Virus record (IMG/VR): IMGVR_UViG_3300006853_000015
Length of the DNA stretch: 64,000 bases
Reading direction: 5' to 3' (one strand)
Source of the DNA: a virus
The notes under the pieces were generated by a model. It was not told the origin of the DNA, made no database searches, and saw nothing but the letters and a program-made list of their open reading frames with translations. Each line of letters begins with the position of its first letter. The first letter of the stretch is position 1. A program made the position numbers and the translations under genes. Below are positions 1 through 64,000 of this stretch, piece by piece.

Positions 1-315
1 CGCATCTGCGGGGAGCGTGAATGTCTCGTATTCGACGGTTGGCAGTGAAACTTCCCCAAGCGCTTCATTGGCCAGCTTGCGGCCCTTCTCGCTTAGCCGG
101 TAGAAGCGCCTACGGGGCTGTGTGATCGGGGCAACCTGGATTTCCCAATGCGCCACAACCAAGCGCGCCTTGGGGCCGCGCCAGCGGCGAAGGATAGGGT
201 AAACCGTGCCTGTGGGAAGGCCGGTTAACCGCACGATATCCGCGCCGCAAATCTTGTTGCTTTGGAGAAGGCACTTCAGCACCTTGAGCGAGGCGAAGGT
301 AAGGCTAAGCTTCAT
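1..315 (-). CDS. PadR-family winged-helix regulator, runs off the left edge (not in ORF track)
   Basis: My translation from ATG at 315: MKLSLTFASLKVLKCLLQSNKICGADIVRLTGLPTGTVYPILRRW...HWE...PRRRFYRLSEKGRKLANEAL. It has the PadR-type GTVYPIL and RRFYRLS-KG motifs. Confidence 0.75.
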   Translation of the reverse strand, partial: MKLSLTFASLKVLKCLLQSNKICGADIVRLTGLPTGTVYPILRRWRGPKARLVVAHWEIQVAPITQPRRRFYRLSEKGRKLANEALGEVSLPTVEYETFTLPADA

Positions 316-598
316 GTGGCCTGCTTTCTAGCGCTTTGGCATAGCGATGAAACGCACCGTCAACTTCCATCTGGGTATCATATGGGCCGTGCCTGTGTGC
401 CCATGTTTCGTCCCAGAAATACCACTTGCCGTCTTCCTTATCCCTGTGAACAGGATTGGGCGGGGCGATAGGCTTGGCCAGTTCGATCTTAAACAGGCTA
501 AGGCACATTTCAGCCTGAGCATGGCTTCCATATGGGCCGCCTAGATAAGCGCCCTCTCTAAACCACCAAAAGCCAGCGGCACGATAAGGTTTAGACAT
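305..598 (-). CDS. Hypothetical protein with a duplicated W-x-F...GPY motif
   Basis: 3' part of ORF 305..754, likely start MSKPY at 598. Contains GFWWFREGAYLGGPYGS and GKWYFWDETWAHRHGPYDT. Confidence 0.55.
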   Translation of the reverse strand: MSKPYRAAGFWWFREGAYLGGPYGSHAQAEMCLSLFKIELAKPIAPPNPVHRDKEDGKWYFWDETWAHRHGPYDTQMEVDGAFHRYAKALESRPHEA

Positions 599-839
599 TG
601 GCCTGCTTTCTAACCTTGTTCGCAAGGTTCCGCAAAAGCCTATATGATCCTGCCTTGCCGCGTGGCGTGATGCCGATAGCGGCCAGCTTATCGCGAATGC
701 TATCCAGTGCAGCCGTGGTCTCGATGCATTCGACAATGTGTTTCCATTCCGCAAGGCTTAGCCGCACGGCCTGACCGTGCCGTGCGTGCGCTGTATCCGT
801 TGCGGGATTATCCGTAAGCGCGGATTTTCTCATGATCAC
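591..839 (-). CDS. Hypothetical protein
   Basis: 82-aa ORF overlapping both neighbours in a tightly packed minus-strand run. Confidence 0.5.
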   Translation of the reverse strand: MIMRKSALTDNPATDTAHARHGQAVRLSLAEWKHIVECIETTAALDSIRDKLAAIGITPRGKAGSYRLLRNLANKVRKQANV

Positions 840-1276
840 TTGCCCCTTGTGGGTATGTAAGAGCCTACAGGATCGATATCAGACGAAGGAATGTAGGCCG
901 GAAACATCTGCTCCTTAATGCGATAGCGCAAACGCATCAGATAGGCTGAGACATCGCTATCGGCCTGGATATTGGCGCTTGATTTGATTGCGCCTAACAC
1001 ATGCTCCCATTCTTCCTGCGAGAGCGTGATATCCATGGTTCTGCATTGTGCAGCGGCATGGCCGCGTATCTGGTCTGGTTTTCTCCACCCTATGCGCGTG
1101 GGATCATCCATTGCCTTGGATTTCGGCCTGTATTCTTCCCGCCCCGTGCACGCTGGCCAAAAGTACTCCCAGCCCCAAAAATAGGCCGCTACAAGGCCAC
1201 GCCCCACCATGACCAGGGCAAGGGCGCACACGATCAGAAACAGGGCTGTGGCGAAAGCCGCAAGATCATTTCCCAT
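836..1276 (-). CDS. Hypothetical membrane protein
   Basis: Likely start MGNDL at 1276. N-terminal hydrophobic helix AAFATALFLIVCALALVMVG. Confidence 0.55.
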   Translation of the reverse strand: MGNDLAAFATALFLIVCALALVMVGRGLVAAYFWGWEYFWPACTGREEYRPKSKAMDDPTRIGWRKPDQIRGHAAAQCRTMDITLSQEEWEHVLGAIKSSANIQADSDVSAYLMRLRYRIKEQMFPAYIPSSDIDPVGSYIPTRGK

Positions 1277-1454
1277 CGTGAATGCACTTTCCGCCAAAGC
1301 CGATGGCATTGCGCACAAAAACCCCGCCGCTTTCGTTGCATTCCAGGTCTTTCAAAAACCTGCCCATTGAAAATGTCAGCATCACCACAACGAACAGGGC
1401 AAGTAAGATGCTGACTACCAATTCAAGGCCGTTCATCCCAGCTCCTTCCACCAA
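1266..1454 (-). CDS. Small single-pass membrane protein
   Basis: Hydrophobic segment LVVSILLALFVVVMLTFSM. Confidence 0.5.
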   Translation of the reverse strand: MVEGAGMNGLELVVSILLALFVVVMLTFSMGRFLKDLECNESGGVFVRNAIGFGGKCIHDGK

Positions 1455-1696
1455 TCTAAACGACGTATATCCGGCGCATCTGGCATATGCACCTTGCCGC
1501 GTATTCTTTCGGGGCCGCCGTATGCATTGTCATCGCAATGGCTGCATAGATTGCATTGCCCCATATCATCGATCACACCAGGGCAGGGCTGTGGCCCCGC
1601 CTGTTGCTTTGGCTTGCGGTTGACGTAGATGTAGACAAACCATGCTGCGAACGCTGGTACGATGATGGAGAGCAGCGGCATAAGCTGCCAATGCAT
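1433..1696 (-). CDS. Small membrane protein with Cys-rich C-terminus
   Basis: AGGA RBS before MHWQ at 1696, a TM helix, then a C-x9-CxxCxxC segment. Confidence 0.55.
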   Translation of the reverse strand: MHWQLMPLLSIIVPAFAAWFVYIYVNRKPKQQAGPQPCPGVIDDMGQCNLCSHCDDNAYGGPERIRGKVHMPDAPDIRRLDWWKELG

Positions 1697-1721
1697 GGGA
1701 ATTCCTTTCGACGGTGCGATG

Positions 1722-8935: not shown

Positions 8936-9442
8936 TTAAAAGGGAATTTCATCGTCTATCTCTTTGGCCGTGTCCGGGGCCGGATTGTTGCGGGGCCGCC
9001 TTCCATCAGCGCCACGCCCCGCCCTTTCGCCGCTGTTCTCGCTCTTGTAGGGGCCGCCGCGTTCACCACCGCCGCCGCGCGCTTCGCCCTGTGGCGGCTT
9101 ATCCAAGAGCACAATCTGCCCCTTGAAGCCGGTTACAACCACTTCGGTTGAATAGCGCTCGTTGCCGTTCTGATCTTCCCACTTGCGCGTTTGCAAGGAA
9201 CCCTCGATGTACACCTTGGAGCCCTTGGCGAGATAGTTTTCGCACACGCTGGCAATACCATCGCCCCAGACCACCACGGAAACCCACTCGGTTTTCTCGC
9301 GCCGTTCGCCTGTGTTCTTGTCTTTCCAGGTTTCGGAGCAAGCAAGCCGCATGTTCGCAACCTTGCCGCCCTGCGTCTGGCGCACCTCGGGGTCTGCCCC
9401 AAGGTTGCCAACCAAAATCACCTTGTTAACACTTCCAGCCAT
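8936..9442 (-). CDS. ssb: Single-stranded DNA-binding protein
   Basis: [21 protein letters not shown]...[16 protein letters not shown]...acidic tail DDEIPF. Confidence 0.97.
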
Positions 9443-9461
9443 AGCCTTGCTATGAACCCCG

Positions 9462-9884
9462 TCAATCCTTACGCAAATACAGCTTGTGCTTTAGCTCGGA
9501 GATTTCTCCCTCAAGCCGGTTTATCGCCGCCGCCTGCCGCTCTTCGGTTTTGCGGCGGATTTCATCTAGCTGAACTTCAGTGCGCCTTGATTGCTCAATA
9601 AGCGGCGCGTTCACCTTGGCTGAATACCAATCAAGCCATTGGTTCACACCACCCGCTATGATGAGCGTTGATATGATTGCGCCCGCGATCTGACCCCACT
9701 TAACCGTACCCTCTCCGGCCTTGTCGGCCGTGCGGCTTACGTCTGTGATATCCTTTCGCAGTGCGGAAACGTCCGCGCGCACTTCTTCCACCACGCCTTC
9801 AAGCGCGTCAAAGCGGCTCTCCAGAAGCATGGTGTCAACGTTGCCGTTGTTCGGCTGACGCGCAGTGCGTCTCGCCGTGGCCAT
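9462..9884 (-). CDS. Coiled-coil protein with one TM helix (possible lysis or holin-associated)
   Basis: Heptad N-terminus, [17 protein letters not shown], coiled-coil C-terminus. Function not determined. Confidence 0.55.
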
Positions 9885-9895
9885 GTTGTCGTCTC

Positions 9896-10441
9896 CTATG
9901 GCAGCATTCTCGCCAGCTCATGAAGAACGCGCTGACCGATGCCCTGGACGCCCCTATGGAAAGCGGCCAAGCTTGCACCTTTCACCAATTCATCGGCAAG
10001 TCCAGGCCCCATCTGCTTAACGATGGGGAAGCGGGGCCGCCCGGCCCGCTTGAACACGTGGCCGCCTAGATAGACGTTATCGCCCGGCGCACCAAAAGCG
10101 CTTGGATATCTGGCTTGCGGCGTCTTGGCCAGAACGCCCCACGACATCTGTTTGGGCGAATAGTATTTCAGGGACATGGGGCCACCGCGCCCCACAATCT
10201 TAGCTTCGATGGCCGAGCCAGCTATGCGCGCCGGAACGAATTTCGTTGCCTTGGCGATGAAGCCGCGCGGGAAGCCGGTTTGCACAGCAAGCGCCCGCTT
10301 CACCGCAGTGAATGTTTTGCGCCCTTCGTGATTTACGGCGCGCACCATAACCACCTTGCCCTTACCAGCGCCAAGCGCCATTAGGGCGGCTGAATAGGTA
10401 GCCATAACGTGGTCAAGGGGCTGGATAACGATCATTGCCAT
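9896..10441 (-). CDS. Lambda gpZ-like minor tail / tail-completion protein
   Basis: RAVNH.GRK..TAVKRAL..QTG...GHVFKRAGRPRFPI...GP pattern; basic protein; first gene after a strong promoter. Start uncertain (10441-10483). Confidence 0.7.
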   Translation of the reverse strand: MAMIVIQPLDHVMATYSAALMALGAGKGKVVMVRAVNHEGRKTFTAVKRALAVQTGFPRGFIAKATKFVPARIAGSAIEAKIVGRGGPMSLKYYSPKQMSWGVLAKTPQARYPSAFGAPGDNVYLGGHVFKRAGRPRFPIVKQMGPGLADELVKGASLAAFHRGVQGIGQRVLHELARMLP

Positions 10442-10641
10442 GATGATCAGGCCCCAAATAACAGGAGCCCCGCCGCTGGCCATTACACCAGGGCGGGGCA
10501 GGGAGGGAGAACAATTACAACCGGCGCGGAACGCAAGACATCAGTCCGGCTGCAAAGGCTTGTAAGCTGCGATTTCGGATAGGGCCTAGCTGGGGGGATA
10601 GTTTCGGCCCCTTGGCTACAATTTCGCATCTTACCCTTTTT

Positions 10642-10674
10642 TATATAGCAAAATGCAGAAAGCGCCGCAACCCC
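10642..10674 (-). promoter_or_regulatory. Sigma70-type promoter for the gpZ/ssb operon
   Basis: Minus strand GGGG-TTGCGG-N17-TATATA, just downstream of a terminator. Confidence 0.6.
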
Positions 10675-10725
10675 ATCGCAAGCCTGTGTTAACCATGACG
10701 TAGTGTTGTGACATAGGTTATGTCT

Positions 10726-10750
10726 AAAAAAAGCCCGGCTGAAGCCGGGC
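10726..10750 (-). terminator. Rho-independent terminator after gcrA
   Basis: Minus strand GCCCGGCT-TC-AGCCGGGC followed by T7. Confidence 0.8.
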
Positions 10751-10900
10751 AGTTTGAGAAACCAAACATGAGAAATCAAAGAACGGCAACCTGCGAAGAT
10801 TAGGTCACGTTCTGTTCTGCGTAGCGGTTACATGGCTATGCCCTCCAAAAGGTGCGGCCCATCAATCCCATAGCTGGCCGCCTGCCTTACAATCTTGTGC

Positions 10901-11434
10901 CTAGGATTTTTTCGTCTTCCTACGCCAATTATATTGCTTGGTTTTCCCCCGCGCCGCAACCCCACCGCAGTAGCAGGCTATAAGAGCATCAATGTTAAGC
11001 GGCCTTGTGGGAGAGCGTGTAAGCCTGTGATGCGCTTCGCAGAATGACCGCCCTGGTAACGTAGGGGCTCCGCAGCACAGGAAGCCAACCATTCCGATAT
11101 CACATCCCAGATAGCTGCATTGGCCTTCCGAGATATTGAAAAGCGTTGGATGCTTCACGTCCATATAGCGCATCACATCAACGATTGGATGATCAACCGG
11201 CCGCGCCGCTTCCTTCGCCCTGTCTTGCCTGTCTTTCTTGTGTACCCTAACGTTTGAAGGGATAGAGCCGCGCTTGATGGCGCGGTCTATCTTCCCGATT
11301 ATTGCATTCTTGGAAACGCACATGCCAAGGGCAAGAAGAGCTTCGCGGATTTCTCCAAATTCGTGATGCCGCATCCGCATGGCCTTGGCTACTTCAAAGT
11401 ATGTGCGCCCGGTTGGTGACTTTGTGTCCCACAT
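10901..11434 (-). CDS. gcrA: GcrA-family cell-cycle regulator
   Basis: N-terminal SKNAIIGKIDR (GcrA SRNAVIGK.HR) and C-terminal TLFNISEGQCSY...FLCCGAPT..GRSFCEAH. Start MWDTK at 11434. Confidence 0.85.
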   Translation of the reverse strand: MWDTKSPTGRTYFEVAKAMRMRHHEFGEIREALLALGMCVSKNAIIGKIDRAIKRGSIPSNVRVHKKDRQDRAKEAARPVDHPIVDVMRYMDVKHPTLFNISEGQCSYLGCDIGMVGFLCCGAPTLPGRSFCEAHHRLTRSPTRPLNIDALIACYCGGVAARGKTKQYNWRRKTKKS

Positions 11435-14242: not shown

Positions 14243-14244
14243 GG

Positions 14245-51620: not shown

Positions 51621-52613
51621 CTAGCTGTTCTGCGGATAGAGCGGGTCGTTCGCGCCGCGCACGCGAATTTGCAGAAGGTCGCGAAGCTGCCGCTCGGCCG
51701 CCCGCTTCTGCTCTTCGGTCATGCCGGACTTCCATTCCAGCGCGCCGCCGAAAACTTCAGCCTGCCGAACAACGAAAGCCGCCTTGGTTGTGGACGGGTT
51801 TGCAGAGGTGACGCCTGCATAGATCACGCCGGACGGGGCCGCGTGCGCAGCCGGGTCGAACTCCTTCCACTCGAAGTCATCCACGTTCAGGTTCACGTCC
51901 ACGTAAACTTCTTCGCCAGCGGTAAAGTCGGTGCCGCCATCGGCCAGGGTGAACTTGATTTCGCCGTTGTACGCCGAGCCAACCGCGCCAGCCAGCGCCA
52001 GCTTAAAGCCGTTCGGGTCGTAAACGTCGAAAGCAGCCGTTGCGCCGGTTGTGGTCATCACCAGCTTGTAGCGGCCCTGTTTCACCGTAGCCGCGTCAAC
52101 AGCGGGGCTTGCTGCCGTAAGAACGCCATCGCCAAGGCCAAGGCGCTCTGTCTGGGAAAGCTTCCCGTAAACGTCGGCAATATCGATATACCAGCGGTCG
52201 CCAACGCCGATTGCGCCGGATGCGTTGGGAATGGTGAACTTCACAATGCCGGTGAAAGCAACGTTCTGGGTTGCCTGCCCCACGAATGAACCATCCGGGG
52301 CATAAACGCCGAACTGCGCATTGTTGTCGGCTCCGGCGTTGGTTTCGGCAACGATACACTCAACGGTGTAACGGCCATAAGCCGCCCCGGCCGCGAAGGC
52401 CGGGTTAGCCAGGGTAAGGGCCGCCGCGCTGTCGTTGTCGCTGTCGGTTGTTGCGGTTGCGGCCTTATTGGCTTCCGTTGGCACCTTCACCACAACGTGG
52501 CCGGACTTCAGCGTTTGGGAAGCGGCAACCTTGCCCGCTTCGCGCGACTGGTGCCCGTTGGCCTCCGAGATAAGGAATTCGCCGGGGTGACGGCCTTCCG
52601 TCAAAGTTGTCAT
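51621..52613 (-). CDS. Head decoration protein with two inserted beta domains
   Basis: MTTLTEG.HPGEFL.SEA.GH.SRE N-terminus and R.AEV...LEW...A.RQL C-terminus; located between the protease and capsid genes. Confidence 0.85.
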   Translation of the reverse strand: MTTLTEGRHPGEFLISEANGHQSREAGKVAASQTLKSGHVVVKVPTEANKAATATTDSDNDSAAALTLANPAFAAGAAYGRYTVECIVAETNAGADNNAQFGVYAPDGSFVGQATQNVAFTGIVKFTIPNASGAIGVGDRWYIDIADVYGKLSQTERLGLGDGVLTAASPAVDAATVKQGRYKLVMTTTGATAAFDVYDPNGFKLALAGAVGSAYNGEIKFTLADGGTDFTAGEEVYVDVNLNVDDFEWKEFDPAAHAAPSGVIYAGVTSANPSTTKAAFVVRQAEVFGGALEWKSGMTEEQKRAAERQLRDLLQIRVRGANDPLYPQNS

Positions 52614-52672
52614 ATAGAACCTCTGATTTTGTAACTGTGTGAGACGGCCCGCCCGCTAGGCGGGTCCGGCTG

Positions 52673-53962
52673 CTACGCGGCCTTGAAGCCCCGCTGCTTA
52701 TTCACCTTCGCCACGGCCTTGTCCCAAGACGCATCGATTGCGGCCTGGGTGGTGGGAGCCGGAACGTTATGGGCATCGGCCAGCGCGCCAGCGTCGGCCC
52801 GCTCGGCCAGCGGCGGGATCGCCGAAGCTTCGGAAGCCGCAGCTTCGAGAATGGCCGTTGCCTGTTCGATGGAAAGGCCCTGCCGCGCCAGCTCGTTGGC
52901 CAGCTTGCCTTTGCCCTTCGCGGCCTCGGAATTCACGATGCCATCATAGCGCGCACGCTCTGCGGCCACCGCATCGGCAATGGCCTTGGTGTGGTCCGCG
53001 ATAACGGGGGGAAGGTTGTCTTCGGTTGCCATTGTGGCTCCTTTGCGTTTCTTCCAGCCAGCGCTTACGCCGCTGGAAAGTTCGGTGAACACGCCTTCAA
53101 AGGTTCCGATAGCATCAGCCAAACCGGCCTTGATTGCTTCTTCACCTGTGAAGTCCCCCGCCTCAGTGGCGCGGGCAGCTTTGGCCGTAAGGCGGGATGC
53201 CCCACGGCCCTCTTCAACCGCCTGCGTAAAGCGGTCATAAAGCCCCATAACCATTTCCTGTGCGTTTTCACGCGCACGCTCGGAAAGGGGCTCAAAGGGA
53301 TTGCCGTCTGCCTTTTTGGCACCAGCGGTGATTATCGTGGGATCAATGCCCTGAGCTTCCAGCTCTTTGCTGTGGTCCAGGTGTATCCAGATAACACCAA
53401 TGCTTCCAAGCGCAGACGTTGGCGAAACCACAATCTGTGAAGCCTGGGAGGCAATCCAATAGCCAGCGCTATAGGCGTGATCATTGATCACGGCATAGAC
53501 TGGCTTTTCATCGCGCAACGCGCGAATGGATGCGGCAAGGTTGGCGATGCCACCCACCTCGCCGCCGAAGCTGTCGATGTCCAGGATAACGCCGCGCGTG
53601 TGCGGGTCGGCCCGTGCATCGGCAAGCTGTGCAGCAATGCCCTCGTAGCTCTGCAATCCTGAATAGCTGCCTATCCAGGCACCACGGTTAACAAGGGAGC
53701 CGGTGATGGAAATCACCGCAATCCCGCTTTCGGCCGGATTGAAGCTGTAAGAACCATCGGGCCGCTTGCGGCTTCCGAAGAATTCGTTAGCCTCAACTTC
53801 GTTCTTCGCATCACGAAGAAGCGCTTCCTCGTTTAAGGAGCCGCCGAAGATGCGTTTGTGCAGCGCGGCGCAAATGATTTCCGCCTTGCCAGGATGAAGC
53901 AACAACGGCGTATTGTAGAGCCGTTGCGCAATCTGTGGAAGGTTGAACAAGCTAACCTCCAA
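52673..53962 (-). CDS. S49-family head maturation protease with scaffold-like C-terminus
   Basis: IAVISI.GSLVNR, ILDIDS.GGE, AYSAGY.IAS, GSIGV..H, AGA.KADGNP.EPL. Confidence 0.93.
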   Translation of the reverse strand: MEVSLFNLPQIAQRLYNTPLLLHPGKAEIICAALHKRIFGGSLNEEALLRDAKNEVEANEFFGSRKRPDGSYSFNPAESGIAVISITGSLVNRGAWIGSYSGLQSYEGIAAQLADARADPHTRGVILDIDSFGGEVGGIANLAASIRALRDEKPVYAVINDHAYSAGYWIASQASQIVVSPTSALGSIGVIWIHLDHSKELEAQGIDPTIITAGAKKADGNPFEPLSERARENAQEMVMGLYDRFTQAVEEGRGASRLTAKAARATEAGDFTGEEAIKAGLADAIGTFEGVFTELSSGVSAGWKKRKGATMATEDNLPPVIADHTKAIADAVAAERARYDGIVNSEAAKGKGKLANELARQGLSIEQATAILEAAASEASAIPPLAERADAGALADAHNVPAPTTQAAIDASWDKAVAKVNKQRGFKAA

Positions 53963-54197
53963 TGAAGGCGCGGCGGGAAGGCGGCTTGCCTTGCTTCGCC
54001 TTACACGCCTCTACCAACTTGGCCAGTTCAATGCGCATCTCTTGCACATTGGCGCGGCCATATTCCACGCGGCGTCTGGTGCCTCCTTCCGTCCAAAACT
54101 CAACAACAAGCGCCTGACCGCCCGTAATGATGTTTTGGATTATGGATTTCAGCTCTTCAACGGCCACGCAAGGGTCTGCGTTTAAAACCGCCATCAA
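53952..54197 (-). CDS. gpW-like head completion protein
   Basis: Between portal and protease; RRVEY..AN..E+R..L..L; 81 aa. Confidence 0.7.
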   Translation of the reverse strand: MMAVLNADPCVAVEELKSIIQNIITGGQALVVEFWTEGGTRRRVEYGRANVQEMRIELAKLVEACKAKQGKPPSRRAFIGG

Positions 54198-55816
54198 TAC
54201 TCCTCAGATGATCTGCCCTCTTCGGCCTCCTGTTTCTTCGCCTCATCGCTAGAAATTTTTTCACGGGCTAGAGTGGCCGCCGTTTCAGCGGCCAACTCTA
54301 TGCCCAACTCTTCACGCAACTCCTTCTCTGCGGCAAGATAGGCTACGGTGTCCTCGTAATCGTAGCCCAAGTCATCGCAAAGCTGGGTAAGCGAAAGCGC
54401 GCCAATCTCGTTTAGGATTTTGACCGCCTTAGCCATCTTTTCGTCATCGGCCTGTGGCCGTGGCGTGCCCTTCCATTCCGCGTAGCAGATGCCTGCACGT
54501 TCAGACATGAACTGTTCCATGCCACCCGGAAGCATCACCCGCCCCGTCTCAATCTGCTCTTCAAGCCAATTCTCGTAGCAGCCGTTATTGAACGGAGACA
54601 GCACGTTGCGCCGCCGCTCCATCACGATTGCCCAGATTTGATGAACGGCCATGCGGATTGACGAGAAGGTTACGCCCGCGTAATCGCCCGTGAAATCCTC
54701 ATAGGTGATGCCAAGGCAACGGGCAATCTCGCGAAGAAGCATCTTCGCGTATGTCTCATATTCGCCCGCCGCGCCCTTAACGGTCATCAGGTCCAGCTTC
54801 TGGCCGGGAAACAGGTGGGCAATGCGCCCGGCCGTGCCGATATCGATCTGTGCGCCCTCGTACCATCCCTGTTGCGCCGCGTTCCAACAATCGAACGCCG
54901 ATACGCTGTCCCCCGCCGATGAAACCTGCGCTTGCTCCTTGTGGGTAAGCAGACCTTGCATTGCTTCATTGGTGGGATATTCGGACGTAAGGGTTGCCGC
55001 GAAGACGCTTCGCAGGATATTGGCCGTAAGTGTGGCGTTGGCCAATTGGTCGAAGCGCTTTGCCACGCGAAGCGCCGGGGTAAGGGGGCTAATGCCCCTT
55101 ACCTGTCCGGCCATGCCGTCGAACACGTGCAGCAACCGCAACCGATTATAACGGTCACGCGCGGGCACCATAAGGTCGCGGTATTGGCCGAAATGGTTTG
55201 TGTATTTGAACCTATACGCCATGGGCCGCCCGTGCGTGTTAAGCTGGACGCCCTGAACAACGTTGTCTAACAGGTTGGTTTCGCGCGACATGCGCATGGG
55301 AGGGATAACGCGCACCTTGCTTTTGTTCAAGGAGTTGGCCGCGTTGATGTACGGAAGCTCCGCCACGATTTCACCCGTGGCGATGAACGACATATACGCC
55401 TGCCGCTGTTGCTTGCCGTGATCGGAGCGGCCTTCCGCGTCGCATTCATTGGCGCTGCATGCGTAGCTGTGCCACAGGGCCTCTACATCCTTGGCCCATT
55501 GCTTGGCCGTGGTTTCATCCATGCCAAGGCTTTGATATTTGGGTTTCGCCTGTAGACGAAGCCCGCCGCCTACCACGCTGGCCGCAGAAGCTTCGATGCC
55601 GCCCGCTATCCATCCAACGTTTTGGGCCATGTCCACGGCCCGCGCCTGTGCACGGTCGTAGGCTTCCCCAACGTCTTCACGCGGCTCGCGCAGCATGGGC
55701 CACCACTTCGCCCAAACCGTGCCCTTCTCGCCTTCCATGAAGCGCGCGTCCGGCCGTGGCTTATCGTTCCTTCCGCCGTTAGGCAGAAGGTTTCGCAACG
55801 TATCAAGAAAGGCCAT
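54194..55816 (-). CDS. Portal protein (lambda family)
   Basis: RARA.DM.QN, G.GLRLQ, GQVRGISPLTP, GITYE..TGDYA.V.FSS.R. Confidence 0.95.
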   Translation of the reverse strand: MAFLDTLRNLLPNGGRNDKPRPDARFMEGEKGTVWAKWWPMLREPREDVGEAYDRAQARAVDMAQNVGWIAGGIEASAASVVGGGLRLQAKPKYQSLGMDETTAKQWAKDVEALWHSYACSANECDAEGRSDHGKQQRQAYMSFIATGEIVAELPYINAANSLNKSKVRVIPPMRMSRETNLLDNVVQGVQLNTHGRPMAYRFKYTNHFGQYRDLMVPARDRYNRLRLLHVFDGMAGQVRGISPLTPALRVAKRFDQLANATLTANILRSVFAATLTSEYPTNEAMQGLLTHKEQAQVSSAGDSVSAFDCWNAAQQGWYEGAQIDIGTAGRIAHLFPGQKLDLMTVKGAAGEYETYAKMLLREIARCLGITYEDFTGDYAGVTFSSIRMAVHQIWAIVMERRRNVLSPFNNGCYENWLEEQIETGRVMLPGGMEQFMSERAGICYAEWKGTPRPQADDEKMAKAVKILNEIGALSLTQLCDDLGYDYEDTVAYLAAEKELREELGIELAAETAATLAREKISSDEAKKQEAEEGRSSEEY

Positions 55817-55824: not shown

Positions 55825-57846
55825 CTAAAGCTTTCTGGCCGCCTGTGCCATGCGCTTGCGTAAGCCTTCGCCAACGCTTTTGCCGCTATGGCTGTCTTCT
55901 TCGGTAACGCCGCCGCTTCTTTCAACGCCTTCCGGGATCAGATGGCAATTCAGAAGCCACGCGGCAGCACGCGCAAGGGCTTCGGCGTCCAGATAATGGT
56001 TCTCGGATGAGCGCACAATCCACTCCGGCTTACCCGTATCGGGGTCTATGATGCGGTTTTCCGCCGCAACTTGACGGCAATAATCTTCCGTGGCGTTGCT
56101 GGGTAGCAGGAACGCGCCCGGCTTATCCATCGGAAGGCGGATTGCGCTATGCGTCCATTGCTTGAAGAAATCGCTGTCCACGTGAACAAGCTCAATCTTC
56201 CGCCTTAGGCCGCCGTCATCAATGCCATGCTCCACAATGCTAAGGGGCTTCATGCGCACGTGGTGGCCGCGTGTAGCGCGGCACAACCATGAATTCTTCC
56301 AACAGAAATCATAAACGGTATGTGCGTCGCCGCTTGATTTCTTGTTTGGCCGGAAGCCCGCGTCTATGAACGCCTTTGAGACGAGCATGCCCGCGCGCTC
56401 GGCCGTAAGAACCTTGTAAAGCTCTTCCCAAACGTCATTGTGATGCGTTGGACCCCAAATCTCATTGGCGTCCACAAGCCAGGATGTGCCGCGAGAACCC
56501 CAACCACGGATAACGTAGACAAGCCGCTTTTGCTGCACGTCCACGCCTGCCGTAAGGATCACCGCGCCCAAAGGCACGTTGCCCATGGGGTACGGAAGCT
56601 TGCGCCCGGCTACTTCCTTCCACGTGACAGCGTTTTCAACTTCCAGATGGGAGAAGCATTCGCCGAAAGCGGAATTGATGACCGTTTGGATTTTGTTTGC
56701 ATCGCCTGTGGCCATTTCACCAAGTAGGCGCGCAGCACGCTCCCCAAACGTTCTAAACGGACTACACAGCCCCGAAACCCAAAAGCTAATGGTGGTAGTG
56801 GCGGGATGGCTTCCCGCCACTGTACCGGCCTTATTTACGGTTTGGCCCGGTGCCACATAAACGCCGCGCTCGTTCATCTCCTGCTTATGGTGCTCTTCGA
56901 TCACCCCACCGCATCCGGGGCATTCCAGATACGCGGAATGCAGCACCTGCGCGGGGCTCTCGTGCTTCGGCCATTTCAGCAGGTCGGCGCGCGGCACAAA
57001 GAAGTCTCCGCAGTGCGGACACGGCCAGCACCAATGATGCCGCGTGCCCTCCTGCCAAAGCTTCCAGATGCCGCTTTTGATTTCATCGGGCTCCCGATAC
57101 TTCCAGAAGCGCAAGCCGCTGTTGGGGTCAAGCTCCGTTTCCACCAAGCCAAGGGAGGGCGTGGAAACCACGCCAACCGAGAAGTCATCGTATGTTTCGC
57201 CACGCGCTTCCACAAGGCCAAGGGGATCGCCCTGGCCGCGAATGTTGTGCAGCATTTCGTCATATTCGTCCACCACGGCCAAGCCAGCCGGATCAGACTT
57301 AAGGGCTGTGGAGCTGCCGCCATGCGCCAAGCGCACGCGCACGCCAGCAATGCGCTTAAGCGTCTTGCTTTGCATACGGTCGCCTAGCAACTTGGCTTGC
57401 AACGTGGCCGATTGCTCAAACAGCTCCACCAACCGGGGCTCAAACTGCGTTTTGACGAATTCCGCAGTAGGCCCCGCGTAAAGGATAGGCACGGGCCTTT
57501 GATCAAGCCGCGCACCCATAACGTCTAGCAGCGCTTCCGTCTTGCCGCTTTGGGCGGCCATGGCGAGAACGCAGCGCTTATATTCGCCGCTGTCCAGCGC
57601 GTGCTCGAAAGGGATGATGTACGGGGTTAGGCCGGGATCGCGAGCGCCCGGCCTGCCGCTGGTTTCTGGATAGACGCGGTTTTGATATGCCCAGATATCG
57701 GGCTTATTCCTCTCTACTGGCTCTAGTATCTTCGCGGATAGCTTCGCAAGCCTCGCCATATTTCGAAGCGAGCGCGGCCAGTTCGCGCCTGATGCCGTCA
57801 ACGGCACGTTCAATGCGGTTTCTGACATCCCTGTCCCTTGTTCCAA
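55825..57846 (-). CDS. Terminase large subunit (lambda gpA family)
   Basis: Walker A MAAQSGKTE, VVDEYDEM, STP, WPCPHCG..F, CPGCG..I.E, LTAGVDVQ, AFIDAG, ENHYLDA. Start may be 57828 or 57759. Confidence 0.96.
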   Translation of the reverse strand: MEQGTGMSETALNVPLTASGANWPRSLRNMARLAKLSAKILEPVERNKPDIWAYQNRVYPETSGRPGARDPGLTPYIIPFEHALDSGEYKRCVLAMAAQSGKTEALLDVMGARLDQRPVPILYAGPTAEFVKTQFEPRLVELFEQSATLQAKLLGDRMQSKTLKRIAGVRVRLAHGGSSTALKSDPAGLAVVDEYDEMLHNIRGQGDPLGLVEARGETYDDFSVGVVSTPSLGLVETELDPNSGLRFWKYREPDEIKSGIWKLWQEGTRHHWCWPCPHCGDFFVPRADLLKWPKHESPAQVLHSAYLECPGCGGVIEEHHKQEMNERGVYVAPGQTVNKAGTVAGSHPATTTISFWVSGLCSPFRTFGERAARLLGEMATGDANKIQTVINSAFGECFSHLEVENAVTWKEVAGRKLPYPMGNVPLGAVILTAGVDVQQKRLVYVIRGWGSRGTSWLVDANEIWGPTHHNDVWEELYKVLTAERAGMLVSKAFIDAGFRPNKKSSGDAHTVYDFCWKNSWLCRATRGHHVRMKPLSIVEHGIDDGGLRRKIELVHVDSDFFKQWTHSAIRLPMDKPGAFLLPSNATEDYCRQVAAENRIIDPDTGKPEWIVRSSENHYLDAEALARAAAWLLNCHLIPEGVERSGGVTEEDSHSGKSVGEGLRKRMAQAARKL

Positions 57847-58362: not shown

Positions 58363-59121
58363 CTAGCGCAAGCCCGCAACCTTGTGCGTCTGAACCGAGA
58401 CAAGCCAATCGTTCACCCGCGCCGCTTCCAGGCAAAGCTCCGTTGCCTTCTTCGACATGGAAAGCGGCTGCAAATAAACGGGCACGTGGTACGCCGTGGC
58501 GCTTTTGCGCACTTCAAGGCGTCTCGCCAGAAGCTTTTGCAGCGTTGTGATATCCGCTGGTTTTCCAACCGGCATCTTGATTTCGTCGGCGCGCAATAGC
58601 GCGTCATCAAGCACCACAAGGCCGCCCGGCATATCCACCTTGGGCGAGAGAGTTACGAAGGTTCCGGGGTCCGCGCTGATTTCGTGCGTGCCGCTGGTTT
58701 CGATCTGGGTTGTAAAGCCCAAGCTTTCGAGATCGTTTGTAACCTTGAAAAGGTCGTAAACGCACGGCTCGCCGCCCGTGAACACCACGTGGTTGTTGCC
58801 GTATTCCTTGGCTAGGCGCACCAGGAACGCGGCTTCCACGATGGCGAATTCAGGGGAGCCCGGCGCTTTGTTCGCAAGCGCCACATAGTGCACCAGATTG
58901 GCCGCGTTCACCTTCCAGGTGTATTTCGTATCGCACCACGGGCACCCTACGGCACAGCCTTGAAGCCGGAAGAAGGTGGAAGGCTTCCCCGTATGGGAGC
59001 CTTCCCCTTGCATCGTTGAGAAGTGTTCGTTAAGGAGCAAGCCTTCCGCAAAGCGCGTTTTGCTGCTCTCGCTTGGCCCGCCGCTTTGGCTTGTGCCCTT
59101 GGGCATATGCTGCTCTGTCAC
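58363..59121 (-). CDS. queE: 7-carboxy-7-deazaguanine synthase (radical SAM)
   Basis: NEHFSTMQGEG..TG.P..F.RL.GCAVGCPWCDT (CxxxCxxC), VVFTGGEP, IETSG, SPK, YLQP, SVQTHK. GGAGG RBS plus GTG at 59121. Confidence 0.95.
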   Translation of the reverse strand: MTEQHMPKGTSQSGGPSESSKTRFAEGLLLNEHFSTMQGEGSHTGKPSTFFRLQGCAVGCPWCDTKYTWKVNAANLVHYVALANKAPGSPEFAIVEAAFLVRLAKEYGNNHVVFTGGEPCVYDLFKVTNDLESLGFTTQIETSGTHEISADPGTFVTLSPKVDMPGGLVVLDDALLRADEIKMPVGKPADITTLQKLLARRLEVRKSATAYHVPVYLQPLSMSKKATELCLEAARVNDWLVSVQTHKVAGLR

Positions 59122-59491
59122 GTTCCGCCTCCACCCTGTTTTCCCACGGAAAGACAAGCCATGTCTCCGGGTCGATGATATACGCCACGGTCCCGCCGTG
59201 AACATGCTCCGATTTATCAAACCACGCGGCGAAGTGAACAACCGGAAAGGTGTCCATCGTTTCGCCGCTTTCGATAACATCGTCTATAACCAGCGTGTTA
59301 AGCTGGTCAACTTCGGCCCTATCCGTGATTAGCGGGATGCCAAGGCCATGGCTTACGGCAACCGCCATCGGCAGGCCGCCGCGCGGGATGCCGTACACGC
59401 TTTTAACGGAGCCCGATTTCACATAGTCCGCGTAAAAACGGATAAGGGCCTCAGCCCCCCTAGTGAAGTGAGCCCACGTAACCGCCAGCAT
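59030..59491 (-). CDS. Purine phosphoribosyltransferase (Gpt-like, type I PRTase)
   Basis: VYGIPRGGL, PRPP-binding LVIDDVIESGETM, WLVFPWE. Start MLAVTW at 59491. Confidence 0.85.
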   Translation of the reverse strand: MLAVTWAHFTRGAEALIRFYADYVKSGSVKSVYGIPRGGLPMAVAVSHGLGIPLITDRAEVDQLNTLVIDDVIESGETMDTFPVVHFAAWFDKSEHVHGGTVAYIIDPETWLVFPWENRVEAERDRAAYAQGHKPKRRAKREQQNALCGRLAP

Positions 59492-59924
59492 GGAGCCGGT
59501 ATGAAGCGCGGCATTTGCCGGTTTCTTCAATGATCGTTTCAACGAGTTGCACCCCCGTGCCAAATAACTGCATGGGGCCAACGCAGCAGACCAAATGCCT
59601 AGCCATGTTCTCCGCTGTAGGGTTGAAAGGAACGGCAACCACTGTTCTGTCGATTTCCATGAGAGCCCGCAAACGCGGGTCTTGTTCCCATAACAGAAAC
59701 TTGTGGTCCCAATTCTCCTCAAGCCATGCGCACAGCAACGTCTTGATTTGAGAAAAGTCCAGCACACGCCCAATGTGGTCAAGCGTGTGCGCCGCGCACA
59801 CAAGGTGGAATTTGTAGTTGTGGCCGTGAAGGTGCGCGCACTTCCCCTCATGGCCCCAAACGCTATGACCGGCGCAAATCTCGTGCGTGCGCGTGGCCGT
59901 GATAACGCCGTTTGTGATGCTCAC
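59460..59924 (-). CDS. queD: 6-carboxy-5,6,7,8-tetrahydropterin synthase
   Basis: AGH.V.GHEGKCAHLHGHNY, LDFSQIK, WDHKFL, NPTAENMA, ET..C.A.Y. GTG start overlaps the folE stop. Confidence 0.93.
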   Translation of the reverse strand: MSITNGVITATRTHEICAGHSVWGHEGKCAHLHGHNYKFHLVCAAHTLDHIGRVLDFSQIKTLLCAWLEENWDHKFLLWEQDPRLRALMEIDRTVVAVPFNPTAENMARHLVCCVGPMQLFGTGVQLVETIIEETGKCRASYRLHAGGYVGSLH

Positions 59925-60625
59925 TTTGCAAGCTCCATCAGCCCCAACATACGCTCCATTTGGTGGGGTAGGTTCATTGTTCCGCGCGCGGCCTGGGTAA
60001 TCATCACGGTGCCCGCATCTCGCACGCCACGCCAGCACGCACAGAAATGCCGCGCCTGAACGATCACGCCAACGCCACGCGGCGCAAAGGCCGCGTGCAG
60101 GGCTTCCACAAGCTGTTGCGTGGCTTCCTCCTGTATCTGCGGCCTGGACATGATGTGTTCTGTGATGCGCCCAAACTTCGATAGACCGAGCAGGGCGTTC
60201 CCTGAGAGCACGCCTACCCATGCCTTCCCAATGATGGGAACCAAATGGTGGCTACAAGCCGAATTAAAGCCCCAAGGGCCTGCTACAAACATATCGGAGC
60301 CCTGCACCACGTTGGGGAACGAAGTGGCTTCAGGCGGCCTTAAATAGCGCCCCTTGAACACTTCGCGCACGTACATCTTCGCCACGCGCGCGGCAGTGTT
60401 CTTCGCGTTGGGATCATTCTCCCTGTCGATCAGAAGGGCGTCAAGTACGCCCTCCATCGCAAGCTTAACCCCTTCCTCGATGCACTCCATTTCGAAGTCA
60501 TCGATATAATCGGCCAGCGATGCATTGGCGTGCATCGAAACGCCCTTCGCCTTTAGCTGGGATCGAACTTTTTCGATCACCAGCCTAACGTCATACGGCT
60601 TTTCCATGGTATCGGCCCGCGTCAT
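59921..60625 (-). CDS. folE: GTP cyclohydrolase I
   Basis: TAARVAKMY..EVF.G, SACSHHL.P..G, GLSKFGR...RPQIQE, ARHFC..WRGV. Confidence 0.95.
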   Translation of the reverse strand: MTRADTMEKPYDVRLVIEKVRSQLKAKGVSMHANASLADYIDDFEMECIEEGVKLAMEGVLDALLIDRENDPNAKNTAARVAKMYVREVFKGRYLRPPEATSFPNVVQGSDMFVAGPWGFNSACSHHLVPIIGKAWVGVLSGNALLGLSKFGRITEHIMSRPQIQEEATQQLVEALHAAFAPRGVGVIVQARHFCACWRGVRDAGTVMITQAARGTMNLPHQMERMLGLMELAK

Positions 60626-61454
60626 AGTGCTGCATCAGCAAGCGCGTATAGATGCTTGTCGTGATCGCAAAGAACAGTTTCACACCAAGAACGCGGCGTA
60701 ACTCACAAGAAAATTCCACCCACGAGGCCGTTGTGATGTTCTGCCAAGTGGAACACACACCTTTGCCAGCGTCTGGGGCAAAGATTGAATAGGGATCATA
60801 TCCCAGCTTGCGGATGCGCTCGGCCACGCGCCGGTTAAGCTTGGCGCGGGTAAGCTGGCGCGGGTGAAGCAACTCCATCACGCCGTGCCCCATATAGACG
60901 GATACCGTACCGAAGCGCCCGCCCTGTTTCCAAGAGCTACTGTCCACGCTGTACGGCTTCAGAAGCTTGATTAGGGGCCAACGTGTCATGCCCAGCAAAT
61001 GCGCCTTGCGCCCTGCCGACCATTCAATCATTTTGGCCGCCCATTGCGCGCCCGCCAGATTGGCGGACGCAAGGCCGCCGAAAGCCACGTAATCAGAAGT
61101 CTGATAGTAGGCGTTGACGGTTTCTTCCGTATCGCCCCGCGTGGCGATGGGGATAGGCTTGAAGCCCCGCGAGAGCATGATTTCGTAATTGCGTAGGGTC
61201 TGCTCCGGTTGCCCGATCACGTCTAGCGTGTAATAGCAATCCGGCATAAGGCCGTCCATGCGCAACGTATCCAGGAAGCCGCAATAGCCGTCAAGCGTTA
61301 CCTCCTTCCCCATCTTGAAGGCGGTAAAGGCCCCGCTGTCCAACATGAATTCGATATCCTCCCGCCTGCTCTTCACCAGCTTGCGCAGGTCTGAACCAAG
61401 GTAGGAGTAGGATATCAGGATGGGAATTCTATTCGATTTCGAGGCTGTCTCCAA
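60591..61454 (-). CDS. dpdA: DpdA-like DNA guanine transglycosylase (TGT fold)
   Basis: FMLDSGAFT, LDVIG, YVAFGG, HLLG.T, YSVDSSSW motifs; adjacent to folE/queD/queE. Subfamily not determined. Confidence 0.8.
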   Translation of the reverse strand: METASKSNRIPILISYSYLGSDLRKLVKSRREDIEFMLDSGAFTAFKMGKEVTLDGYCGFLDTLRMDGLMPDCYYTLDVIGQPEQTLRNYEIMLSRGFKPIPIATRGDTEETVNAYYQTSDYVAFGGLASANLAGAQWAAKMIEWSAGRKAHLLGMTRWPLIKLLKPYSVDSSSWKQGGRFGTVSVYMGHGVMELLHPRQLTRAKLNRRVAERIRKLGYDPYSIFAPDAGKGVCSTWQNITTASWVEFSCELRRVLGVKLFFAITTSIYTRLLMQHYDAGRYHGKAV

Positions 61455-62040
61455 AATCGATGTCTCCCCCGTCTCGCATGGCCTGCAAGGCGTTATCCAG
61501 GTGCTTCTTCACCGTGTCTTTGTGCTGCGGCAGGCAACGCACCTTGATTACCGCTTTCAGCTCTGCCACGTCTCCGGCCAGCTCTTCCGCCGTAACGGTG
61601 GGCTTCCAACCGCCAATGATGGTTTGCAGCTCATCATCCGAGAAACCGGCCCCGGCCGGGTCCATATCTTGGTCGATAAGCTTCTGAACAGCGGCGGCCA
61701 GAAGCTCGTCGTTCCACGTGCTGTCTTCGCCGAAACGGTTGTCAGCCAGGATAAGCTCCAAGGCTTCCGCATCCGTGCCCTCGAAGATGGCGCACGGAAT
61801 GCTTGCCGCCTTGTCCACGCAACCAAACGCCTGCCAACGCTTATGACCGGCCAGAATGGTGCCATCGGGCCGCGCCACAAGCGCGCCCACGAAACCCACG
61901 CGCTTCATGTAATCGGCCAGCTTCTGAATTGAAGCCGCATCGTGCTCGCGCGGGTTTTCGGGATGCGGCTTGAACCAATTCCAGGGCCGCACTTCGATTT
62001 CTGATACCTTGGCCTCAAGGCCCTTCTTCAGCTTCGCCAT
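61429..62040 (-). CDS. ParB/Srx N-terminal-domain protein
   Basis: KPHPENPREH...IQKL...GF....ARPDGTILAGHKRW.A...LADNR. Confidence 0.85.
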   Translation of the reverse strand: MAKLKKGLEAKVSEIEVRPWNWFKPHPENPREHDAASIQKLADYMKRVGFVGALVARPDGTILAGHKRWQAFGCVDKAASIPCAIFEGTDAEALELILADNRFGEDSTWNDELLAAAVQKLIDQDMDPAGAGFSDDELQTIIGGWKPTVTAEELAGDVAELKAVIKVRCLPQHKDTVKKHLDNALQAMRDGGDIDFGDSLEIE

Positions 62041-62303
62041 TAGCGCCGCCCTCTCTTTTCAGTGCACAGCTCGGCAGCTATGCGTATAGCGCTTGCCGCA
62101 ACGTCGATAGCCTCTTTGCGCATGGCTTCGAGATCGCGGTTGCGTTGCTTCGTCCAAACGTGCTCTTTCAGCTCTTCGAACTCTTCCATAAGAACGCCGA
62201 AGCCTTCGTGAGCACTGTTGAACGGCCCGTATATCTCGCGAGATTGGGCCGCCAATTTCAGGGCGGCCAGCGCCGCCCGAACGAATTTCTTCTTAGGTCT
62301 CAT
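62040..62303 (-). CDS. MazG-like nucleotide pyrophosphohydrolase
   Basis: HEG.GVL.EEFEEL...EAIDVAA (EExxE...ExxD). Start MRPKKK at 62303. Confidence 0.65.
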   Translation of the reverse strand: MRPKKKFVRAALAALKLAAQSREIYGPFNSAHEGFGVLMEEFEELKEHVWTKQRNRDLEAMRKEAIDVAASAIRIAAELCTEKRGRR

Positions 62304-63363
62304 CGCAGAACCCCGCCCGCTTGCGACGCCACAGCAGATAGTCAGCCCCTTCTTCCACATCAGGGAAGCAATGCACGTAGCCAGCGCCGCCGCGTGCAAG
62401 GGGATCGATAACGGAGACGATGGAAGCGCCCGTGATCTGGTGTCCGAACTGCCCCTTTTCCGCGTAACTGTCGATGGCCTTGTAGCCCTTGGCGCGGCAT
62501 GCCCAAAACTGGCCGCCCTGGAAAGGGTGCTCGCTATGAAACATGGCGTAGTTGTGGCGATGGCCGCAGATGTACAGGGCCGCCTGTGCGCGCTCTGCCA
62601 TCTTCATGGGGCCTTGCAGCGGGTTGATCGCCGAGCTTCCCTTGAAGTCGTGCGCCGCCCATATGGGAAGTTTCAAACCGCACGGAAAGGTAAGCTTGAT
62701 TTGGGCCTGCCAATCGTGAAGCGGGACGATGTTCCGCGCTTGCGCGCGCATCAGCTCACTTCCACCGCGCCAAGCGTCGTGGTTTCCAAGCAACCACATC
62801 AGCCACTCAACCCCGGAACGGTGCAACAGCCACTCCACAAGCTGTGCGGCCTGGGTGCGGGTAACAAGCTGTTCCTCGTAAAGGTGCAAAAGCTTGCCAA
62901 GCCAATTATTGGTGCTGTCACCGATATTGGCACCCACCATGCCCGGCGTTTTGGCCGTTACTGCAACGTCATAGCGCAATTGCGGCCAATCGCAACCACC
63001 ATCGTCCATATGGGGATCACCAAACCACACAATCCCCATAGGTGCGTCGCTGTTCACGGCAATTTCATGCCACCGTCTTGCAGCGTGTTCGCGATGGGTG
63101 CGCCGGTAGGCGATTTCCAGGCCGTCCAGTAGCTCTTCGTCGCTCATTGCCGCGCTTGGAAGGCGCGGCTGAGTAAGTACAGCACCAACCGGGGCCTGCT
63201 CTGCATGGGGCATTAGCCCCGCGCTACGCCCCATCTTCGCGCGATCATACAGCGTTGTCTTGCTGATGCCTGATGCTCTCGATGCCTGCTCATATGTGCC
63301 GTGTTTTAGCACAAGGTCAAGCGCCTGTTGCCAAAGCTGTGCCTTGGCGTCTTCACGGTCCAT
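62293..63363 (-). CDS. Calcineurin-like metallophosphoesterase with N-terminal HTH
   Basis: ASRASGISKTTLYDR (HTH); FGDPH, IGD..NN, LGNHD, H, GHRH metal motifs. Start MDRED at 63363. Confidence 0.85.
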   Translation of the reverse strand: MDREDAKAQLWQQALDLVLKHGTYEQASRASGISKTTLYDRAKMGRSAGLMPHAEQAPVGAVLTQPRLPSAAMSDEELLDGLEIAYRRTHREHAARRWHEIAVNSDAPMGIVWFGDPHMDDGGCDWPQLRYDVAVTAKTPGMVGANIGDSTNNWLGKLLHLYEEQLVTRTQAAQLVEWLLHRSGVEWLMWLLGNHDAWRGGSELMRAQARNIVPLHDWQAQIKLTFPCGLKLPIWAAHDFKGSSAINPLQGPMKMAERAQAALYICGHRHNYAMFHSEHPFQGGQFWACRAKGYKAIDSYAEKGQFGHQITGASIVSVIDPLARGGAGYVHCFPDVEEGADYLLWRRKRAGFCDET

Positions 63364-63416
63364 ATGCCCGTATCTCCACAATTGCCCTACGCAGCACAAA
63401 GGGAGATAGATTGAAA

Positions 63417-63595
63417 GGCGGGGCGGCTCACGTGATCACGCTCATAATCACGCTTACCGCCCCGCCATAGCGCCGCGCCATGCCGTCGAAGTCATGGGGT
63501 CGCTAATGAAAACCGGGGCTGCATGCCAGTGCGCCCCGGTTCCGGGTCTCTACCGTGGCATTGGGGGAAGGAAAGCCCCATAGCCATAGGAGACG
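63417..63595. other. Three consecutive hairpins upstream of the modification operon
   Basis: GGCGGGGCGG/CCGCCCCGCC (63417-63466) with an inner CGTGAT/ATCACG stem; ACCGGGGC/GCCCCGGT; GTCTC..TGGGG/CCCCA..GAGAC. Confidence 0.5.
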
Positions 63596-63598
63596 CCT

Positions 63599-63934
63599 TT
63601 ACCTGGGATCAACAACCATCCACATTAGCACCTCTTCCACGCCAAGCACGTGGCAAGAGATCGTGCGCGGCCCATCGCCCCACCTAATCTTCGTGCTTGT
63701 GGGCACGCTATAGGTCTGGGTTAGCAATTGGCACTTGCGGATAAATTCCATTTCCGTCCAGCCCTTAACCTCGTATCCGTCTCCCACGTTGTACAGGCCG
63801 GGCTTCGATGTGGCCGCACTGCGAAGAAAGCACACCTGATTTCCATTGCAGGCCACGTTAGCCGCACCTGGAAGAGGTTCTGATGCTACGGGGAACGCAA
63901 ATAGAACAAAAATAGTCCAAAGATATGCAGCCAA
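63599..63934 (-). CDS. Secreted hypothetical protein
   Basis: AAAGGAG RBS plus TTG at 63934; signal-like AAYLWTIFVLFAFPVAS; four Cys. Confidence 0.55.
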   Translation of the reverse strand: MAAYLWTIFVLFAFPVASEPLPGAANVACNGNQVCFLRSAATSKPGLYNVGDGYEVKGWTEMEFIRKCQLLTQTYSVPTSTKIRWGDGPRTISCHVLGVEEVLMWMVVDPR

Positions 63935-64000
63935 TGCGCAACTCCTTTCTATGGATTTTCCTGCGGGTAGATTTCTATTCCCCCTGAACAAGAAAAAGGT

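Follow-up and report, generated by a model that had tools for sequence, protein, structure and literature searches.

The stretch analysed here, in the following called the window, comprises 64,000 bp of DNA from the IMG/VR virus record IMGVR_UViG_3300006853_000015 and corresponds to bases 29–64028 on the minus strand of one viral record of 65,930 bp, which was derived from rhizosphere metagenomes. Judged by its genes it belongs to a contractile-tailed phage (a myovirus) with a GpA-type terminase, and this phage does not contain a single copy of GANTC, the target of the methylase CcrM. An exact search returned 0 GANTC on both strands of the window where 193.4 sites (standard deviation 13.6) were expected from 100 dinucleotide-preserving shuffles, and the entire record including its end-to-end junction is equally free of the motif, whether in coding or in non-coding DNA. 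The record is classed as linear with an estimated completeness of 88%. The genes and modules assigned in the window are given below with their positions and strands.

8936-9442, minus strand: SSB, in the replication/recombination region 8936..18648
10901..11434, minus strand: GcrA-family cell-cycle regulator homolog of 177 amino acids (PF07750, 32.4 bits, cut-off 26.9)
11907-13727, minus strand: AAA_25 helicase-type protein
15007-16086, plus strand: DUF932 protein
16716-17822, plus strand: PDDEXK exonuclease
17764-18648, plus strand: phrog_3657 protein, neighbour of the PDDEXK exonuclease
19419-20651, plus strand: protein of 410 amino acids with an N-terminal dATP/dGTP diphosphohydrolase domain (PF18909)
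30237..55816, minus strand: structural and lysis module with lambda-type portal, S49 prohead protease, sheath, tape measure, P2 I/J-type baseplate and endolysin
47722-48552: ThyX gene, inserted within the structural module
55825..57846, minus strand: large terminase of GpA type, the marker used to collect relatives
58363..61454, minus strand: predicted 7-deazaguanine DNA-modification cluster, directly upstream of the terminase genes, with the five members that follow
58363-59121, minus strand: QueE-like radical SAM protein (PF04055)
within 59030-59851, minus strand: PRTase-like open reading frame
about 59460-59890, minus strand: QueD/PTPS (PF01242)
59921-60625, minus strand: FolE (PF01227)
60591-61454, minus strand: DpdA-like transglycosylase (phrog_887)
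61429..62040, minus strand: ParB-like protein (PF02195, phrog_620/498), adjoining the modification cluster

A preceding sequence-only reading had noticed that GANTC was missing from all modules of the 64 kb and had put the number of sites expected by chance at about 200, and both statements agree with the exact counts. It had also described near-miss words and GATC as common; the twelve one-mismatch neighbour words of GANTC indeed occur 94–460 times each, and GATC is found 227 times against 220 by dinucleotide expectation, showing no depletion. Only its GC content of about 59% had to be corrected, the measured value being 57.2%. All four variants of the motif are missing, with GAWTC at 0 of 129 and GASTC at 0 of 69 expected sites, and the comparison with Markov models that the earlier reading had proposed gave 163–240 predicted GANTC for orders 0–2 against 0 observed. 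The motif lies far below its composition-matched expectation in the window phage, as is found in restriction-site avoidance.

The absence can be followed down to the choice of codons. In the 87 genes called we shuffled the synonymous codons within each gene, which keeps the proteins and the codon usage per gene, and 300 of these shuffles gave 96.1 ± 8.5 GANTC across the 54.2 kb of coding sequence and never fewer than 76, compared to none observed. Serine following aspartate or glutamate is encoded by AGY in all cases (82/82) while AGY makes up 40% of the serine codons overall, and a codon ending in GA never precedes an NTC codon in the phage genes. Between G-ending and C-starting codons AAT, ACT, AGT and ATT are never used, and the rare isoleucine codon ATA accounts for 22 of the 36 isoleucine codons in this context, the rest being ATC and never ATT. 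GANTC has been lost by synonymous choices, showing selection on the DNA and not on the protein.

This selection is still ongoing. Two purged proviruses related to the window phage could be aligned over 36.9 kb and differ by 5,193 substitutions (14% divergence), which would create 67 ± 7.5 new GANTC if placed randomly; the two genomes actually hold 1 and 0, and the only site is located at the extreme end of its provirus record. As the relatives share only 30–55% amino-acid identity their synonymous sites are saturated, and zero GANTC must have been upheld independently in each lineage. The codon-level and divergence tests support what the sequence-only reading had proposed from the counts, namely that GANTC is strongly selected against in this phage, whose host is probably an alphaproteobacterium with CcrM.

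Relatives were collected by their terminase, resulting in 44 loci from species-representative genomes and 80 loci from IMG/VR, the latter found by an alignment-based scan whereas a single-protein scan of IMG/VR gave zero relatives. No relative exceeds about 55% terminase identity, the named homologs at 50–53% all come from Alphaproteobacteria, and among cultured phages ‘Microcystis phage Mae-JY30’ (PP438422.1) comes closest. Nearly all of the 44 species-representative loci belong to Hyphomicrobiales and Rhodobacterales. The hosts of five relatives were examined, and all of them have a full-length gene of the CcrM type. The purged or nearly purged relatives are the following, with GANTC given as observed/expected.

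Mae-JY30 (61.7 kb, 66% GC): 0/324
Brucella haematophila prophage locus: 0/112
Rhodopseudomonas faecalis prophage locus: 0/101
Rhodoplanes tepidamans prophage locus: 0/121
Devosia ginsengisoli prophage locus: 0/109
Aestuariivirga prophage locus: 0/112
Rhizobiales isolate locus: 0/134
Chelatococcus prophage locus: 1/119
Rhizobium subbaraonis prophage locus: 1/106
17 of the 80 IMG/VR loci, summed: 0/1,104
whole purged viral records: 0/253, 0/315, 0/219, 1/315 and 1/279

In the two whole records with one GANTC (1/315 and 1/279) the site is again found at the extreme edge of the provirus. The purged relatives include prophages of 55–67 kb from Hyphomicrobiales, and the remaining family members form a continuum up to an observed/expected ratio (O/E) of 0.6, with whole non-purged records at 0.19–0.39 and a spirochaete outgroup at 0.96. 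Type strains with a purged prophage include R. faecalis JCM 11668, Chelatococcus sambhunathii DSM 18167, Rhodoplanes tepidamans DSM 9987 and Rhizobium subbaraonis JC85, and Brucella haematophila CCUG 38531 is a further host of a purged member. In the terminase tree the purged state is clustered (0 of 200 label shuffles were as low) yet labile, with at least 14 changes and with sister pairs that differ in their state. The named hosts of the purged members are all Hyphomicrobiales (8/19 compared to 0/12 for Rhodobacterales, Fisher p = 0.012). Three near-identical family members (L018, L030 and L037) on short contigs in metagenome-assembled genomes of Gammaproteobacteria, Anaerolineales and Telluria are probably the result of mis-binning. 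Microcystis has a GC content of about 42%. Mae-JY30 has 66% GC, zero GANTC, a serine recombinase and terminase relatives that are all found in Alphaproteobacteria, and its true host may be an alphaproteobacterium living together with the Microcystis culture.

A second type of purge was found in the Bradyrhizobium prophages L031 and L038, in which GAWTC alone is missing (0/52 and 0/73) and GASTC is still present (5/49 and 8/43). As CcrM variants specific for GAWTC have been described for Rhizobiales (PMC8919816), these relatives match the specificity of such variants and tie the pressure to the local specificity of CcrM. The loci L005/L006 show GAWTC at 2/47 with GASTC kept at 14/51. The alphaproteobacterial setting of the window phage is supported by its terminase homologs, the related prophages with at least 40 loci in Alphaproteobacteria, the CcrM of their hosts, the GAWTC-only relatives and its GcrA-family gene, as such a gene marks an alphaproteobacterial host.

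Where the prophages lie in sequenced chromosomes the purge ends with the phage. In R. faecalis a GANTC-free island of 57,140 bp is surrounded by DNA with 5–16 sites per 5 kb, and in Devosia the GANTC-free island spans at least 51 kb. The host DNA itself shows an O/E of 0.26–0.35, agreeing with the published chromosomal value of about 0.29 (PMC8919816) and with the at least 2-fold depletion of GANTC described for alphaproteobacterial genomes (PMC3973325). For these relatives the purge belongs to the phage and not to the host.

GANTC is the most strongly avoided word of the window phage but 16 of the 64 six-base palindromes are missing as well, among them CCGCGG (52 expected), GGGCCC (37), CCCGGG (31), CAGCTG (21) and CTGCAG (21) and furthermore ACGCGT, AGGCCT, GGATCC, GAGCTC and ACCGGT, while GGCGCC and GCCGGC are present once each with 61 expected. 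This broad palindrome avoidance was overlooked in the sequence-only reading and accompanies the GANTC purge. Several purged genomes lack many hexamer palindromes whereas the non-purged ones mostly lack none, and in this cross-genome comparison the window and the record G007 each lack 12, eight of them common to both. GGATCC is the only other word lost family-wide when nine purged and six non-purged genomes are compared: no or hardly any site is left in 7 of the 9 purged genomes, which include G006–G010, Mae-JY30 and the R. faecalis island, and its frequency is normal in all 6 non-purged ones. It is also depleted in the host DNA (6/39 and 3/30 of expected in L051–L057), which suggests that a BamHI-type system is common in the hosts of the relatives; loss in the phage together with depletion in the host is the usual footprint of real restriction-modification pressure. 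Other palindromes are over-represented in the window phage compared to the dinucleotide expectation, namely GAATTC (49/18), AAGCTT (51/18), GATATC (47/9) and TGATCA (35/11.5), and Mae-JY30 shows the opposite for three of them (GAATTC 0, AAGCTT 1, GATATC 1).

The 65.9-kb record, complete to an estimated 88%, contains no DNA methylase of the families PF01555, PF02086, PF00145 or PF05869, and no methylase was seen among the Pfam matches of the phage open reading frames. The idea that retaining family members carry their own methylase and purged members do not is unsupported. Among the near-complete records PF01555 was found in 3 of 4 that retain GANTC and in 1 of 5 that are purged, too few for significance, and a methylase is lacking in retaining Loktanella proviruses but present in the purged Mae-JY30. 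The GcrA-family gene sits in a genome that offers GcrA no GANTC to read, and a near homolog of its product was not found in a word-indexed protein search. GcrA was rejected as the cause of the purge, since it occurs in only 1 of 12 records of relatives, a non-purged one, and also in the non-purged Brucella phage Tb. The dATP/dGTP diphosphohydrolase domain (PF18909) occurs in phage nucleotide-pool remodelling, and a dCMP deaminase and an RNase T-type exonuclease are further nucleotide genes of the phage. No integrase was seen in the record at its estimated 88% completeness, and no tRNA genes were found in the phage, so that tRNAs give no hint to the host. A nucleotide search with 20 kb of the window against the phage collection gave zero matches. 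The record (G000:C1) begins and ends with the identical 8 bases (GGCCGCCC), and a longer terminal repeat is absent.

The sequence-only reading had further assumed that the phage probably modifies its guanines, and the predicted DpdA-like, FolE, QueD and QueE-like proteins speak in favour of this. QueC was not found among the scanned open reading frames, and the TGT Pfam model gave no match in the phage despite the DpdA-like phrog_887 assignment; a cluster lacking QueC suggests a DNA modification of the 7-carboxy-7-deazaguanine type. The cluster would represent a second, independent anti-restriction layer. At the same position the relatives have a pair of ParB and N6/N4 methylase, as in Mae-JY30 with its PF01555 methylase beside the ParB genes. 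As a cause of the purge the cluster was rejected because the other purged genomes do not share it.

Taken together, the GANTC-purged soil phage and its distant relatives point to a strong GANTC-directed killing activity. An absolute, genome-wide and maintained loss implies a near-lethal cost per site and suggests cleavage rather than regulation, and the co-loss of classic restriction palindromes that are also avoided by the hosts suggests restriction enzymes. The explanation we favour, and to which we give about an even chance, is that the phage avoids the sites under attack by nucleases which are specific for GANTC and sensitive to its methylation, and which could do without a methylase of their own because CcrM protects the host. 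According to this model a single GANTC site would be close to lethal, so that sites would be removed synonymously and their return prevented. The agent would be one or more such nucleases in soil Hyphomicrobiales hosts, and their genes could lie in the host genomes or on mobile elements of these hosts. As the universal CcrM already marks the GANTC sites of the host, the nuclease would need no partner methylase, and the fast-replicating phage DNA would be left unmethylated and exposed. We infer both the nuclease nature of the agent and the self-protection by CcrM. A phage without a methylase could become immune at GANTC only by losing the sites. GANTC methylases are encoded by many other phages of Alphaproteobacteria (PMC5537653, PMC7139368), and in one reading these methylases and the site purge answer the same pressure.

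Several observations weigh against such a nuclease. CcrM has been described as an orphan in Alphaproteobacteria (PMC3973325). We found no GANTC-cutting enzyme of Alphaproteobacteria in the literature, and the host genomes were not searched for a HinfI-type nuclease; a literature search for HinfI isoschizomers in rhizobia gave none as well, and a mention of GANTC in a review on restriction glycosylases was rejected as it concerns Helicobacter. Beside CcrM-type genes on alphaproteobacterial plasmids no nuclease was found, and the genes there lay in the usual housekeeping setting of rnhB and ccrM. In the same five hosts, unrelated elements with a terminase have an O/E of 0.14–0.37, comparable to host DNA, and none of them is purged. 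Likewise unpurged are the unrelated cultured phages Tb of Brucella (0.44), 16-3 of Rhizobium (0.39), 7-7-1 of Agrobacterium (0.55), RcKemmy of Rhodobacter (0.55) and phiLM21 of Sinorhizobium (0.19), the last having its own GANTC methylase. The purge is not general to the phages of these hosts but specific to lineages of one phage family, and a host-wide nuclease would hit the co-resident elements and phages too, unless they are otherwise protected or vertically inherited. In addition, the purged relative G009 (GANTC 0/315) shows zero hexamer avoidance.

A broader idea, which we regard as tentative and rather doubtful, is that CcrM methylation of GANTC also serves as the ‘self’ mark of a widespread and undescribed GANTC-directed killing system in Hyphomicrobiales, either a nuclease unlinked to a methylase or a phage weapon that reads the mark of the host. 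If this is true, whole temperate phage lineages survive only by carrying zero GANTC, and the GANTC-free islands would be a simple genomic flag for such phages and a handle for finding the system.

The direction of the attack could also be reversed, with the purged lineages carrying or triggering an activity against the GANTC of the host, maybe via the CcrM mark, while the site-free phage is safe. Chloroviruses use restriction enzymes of their own, among them the GANTC-specific CviBI, to break down the DNA of the host, and T4 degrades cytosine-containing host DNA, and both can be seen as analogies. The restriction of the purge to lineages of one family, next to unpurged co-resident elements and unpurged unrelated phages of the same host genera, would fit this scenario. 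Moreover, the purge follows an early-gene module and not the terminase tree, as SSB and phrog_3657 are the only families present in 6 of 9 purged and 0 of 6 non-purged genomes. The ThyX, dCMP deaminase and RNase T-type exonuclease of the window phage would fit a reuse of host DNA, and the purged Mae-JY30 encodes an N6/N4 methylase despite zero GANTC of its own. We nevertheless consider this scenario unlikely, as it needs the repeated gain and loss of a hypothetical gene, as it leaves unexplained the parallel loss of GGATCC and other palindromes that are depleted in the hosts too, and as the purged genomes have no candidate for a site-specific nuclease in common. Gene-content association gave SSB, YqaJ exonuclease, DUF932, SRAP, a CI-like repressor and a family resembling annealing proteins as the families found only in purged genomes, and thus recombination, repressor and SRAP families but no candidate for a site-specific nuclease. 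SRAP (SOS-response-associated peptidase), whose family shields abasic sites, is encoded by four purged relatives, at L153:1862-2539 and with homologs in G008, G009 and G010, and by no non-purged relative.

Slightly less probable still is an explanation without any cutting, in which the phage evades methylation by CcrM and the reading of the sites by GcrA and RNA polymerase and uncouples its prophage and lytic transcription from the host cell cycle. Every examined host of the relatives has a CcrM-type gene, the GcrA-like protein of the window phage could act on host sites only, and the GAWTC-only purge would fit any CcrM-linked model. Alphaproteobacterial genes under-represent GANTC, possibly for regulatory reasons (PMC3973325). 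Regulatory noise, however, yields only about 3-fold depletion in the hosts (PMC8919816), whereas an O/E of 0 as in the phage demands a near-lethal cost per site. Furthermore, unrelated temperate elements of the same hosts are unpurged, and GcrA is missing from the other purged relatives but present in a non-purged one and in phage Tb.

A by-product of composition, codon usage, amino acids or mutational bias, or an assembly artefact, can be excluded, with hardly any probability left for a lack of selection on GANTC: apart from some under-representation of GANTC in the host class nothing was found in its support, dinucleotide shuffles, Markov models of order 0–3 and synonymous-codon shuffles all predict between 96 and 240 sites, the neighbour words are abundant, the same zero is found in independently assembled genomes from 55% to 67% GC, and sister lineages differ sharply.

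CcrM is the textbook ‘orphan’ methylase and has been studied as a cell-cycle regulator without a role in defence. That a phage family keeps genomes of 55–67 kb free of the CcrM target across hosts and deep divergence, and at a cost, is an argument that GANTC in its unmethylated (or methylated) form kills these phages under natural conditions. For practical use, GANTC-free islands delimit such prophages to within a few hundred bases, and the level of GANTC in a viral contig can serve as an inexpensive hint that the host is an alphaproteobacterium.

Among known systems, the purge resembles classical restriction-site avoidance, of which Staphylococcus phage K without any GATC (Sau3AI) site is an example. 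A general treatment of such avoidance in phages has been given (PMC4687349). As in the classical cases a short palindrome has been wholly removed from a large phage genome by synonymous changes, together with other palindromes of the Type II kind. There, however, the cognate host enzyme is known, whereas here the word is the target of an ‘orphan’ housekeeping methylase, and a matching nuclease has yet to be described from Alphaproteobacteria.

Under-representation of GANTC has been described for chromosomes (Gonzalez et al. 2014, PMC3973325; Hiraoka et al. 2022, PMC8919816) and concerns the same word, the same host class and the same link to CcrM including the GAWTC variants. The chromosomes differ in being depleted only about 2- to 3.5-fold with intergenic sites kept, while the phage has zero sites anywhere. 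A GANTC-specific response of alphaproteobacterial phages is also known from phiLM21 and from phages of Paracoccus and Ochrobactrum, which encode methyltransferases that mimic CcrM (PMC5537653, PMC7139368). These phages keep their sites and methylate them (phiLM21 with an O/E of 0.19), in contrast to the window phage with neither methylase nor sites.

A close biological parallel are the pelagiphages, about half of which are GANTC-depleted, and a GANTC-free provirus in ‘Ca. Pelagibacter giovannonii’ NP1, both described without a settled cause (Seong et al. 2022, Microbiome, PMC9516812). There a CcrM-bearing alphaproteobacterial host retains GANTC while its phages or provirus lack it, as in the relatives examined here and probably in the window phage. 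The depletion of the pelagiphages also partitions the phage phylogeny with no matching restriction enzyme known, and an origin in the evasion of defence has been proposed (PMC9516812). The pelagiphages are podoviruses of SAR11 hosts, whereas the family described here has genomes of 55–67 kb with a contractile tail and a GpA-type terminase, and its relatives live in soil and freshwater Hyphomicrobiales. Our literature search found no report of a GANTC purge in this phage family, in Hyphomicrobiales prophages or in Mae-JY30. Compared with the pelagiphages the purge described here is absolute over the whole genome and still maintained, GGATCC and other palindromes have been lost as well, and some lineages avoid GAWTC only. 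New are the proof of selection from codons and from divergence, the comparison with other elements in the same hosts, the lineages that avoid GAWTC alone and the loss of GGATCC along with GANTC. As several type strains carry purged prophages, the question raised by SAR11, whether a hidden defence or a phage weapon is keyed to the CcrM mark, now becomes testable in culturable bacteria.

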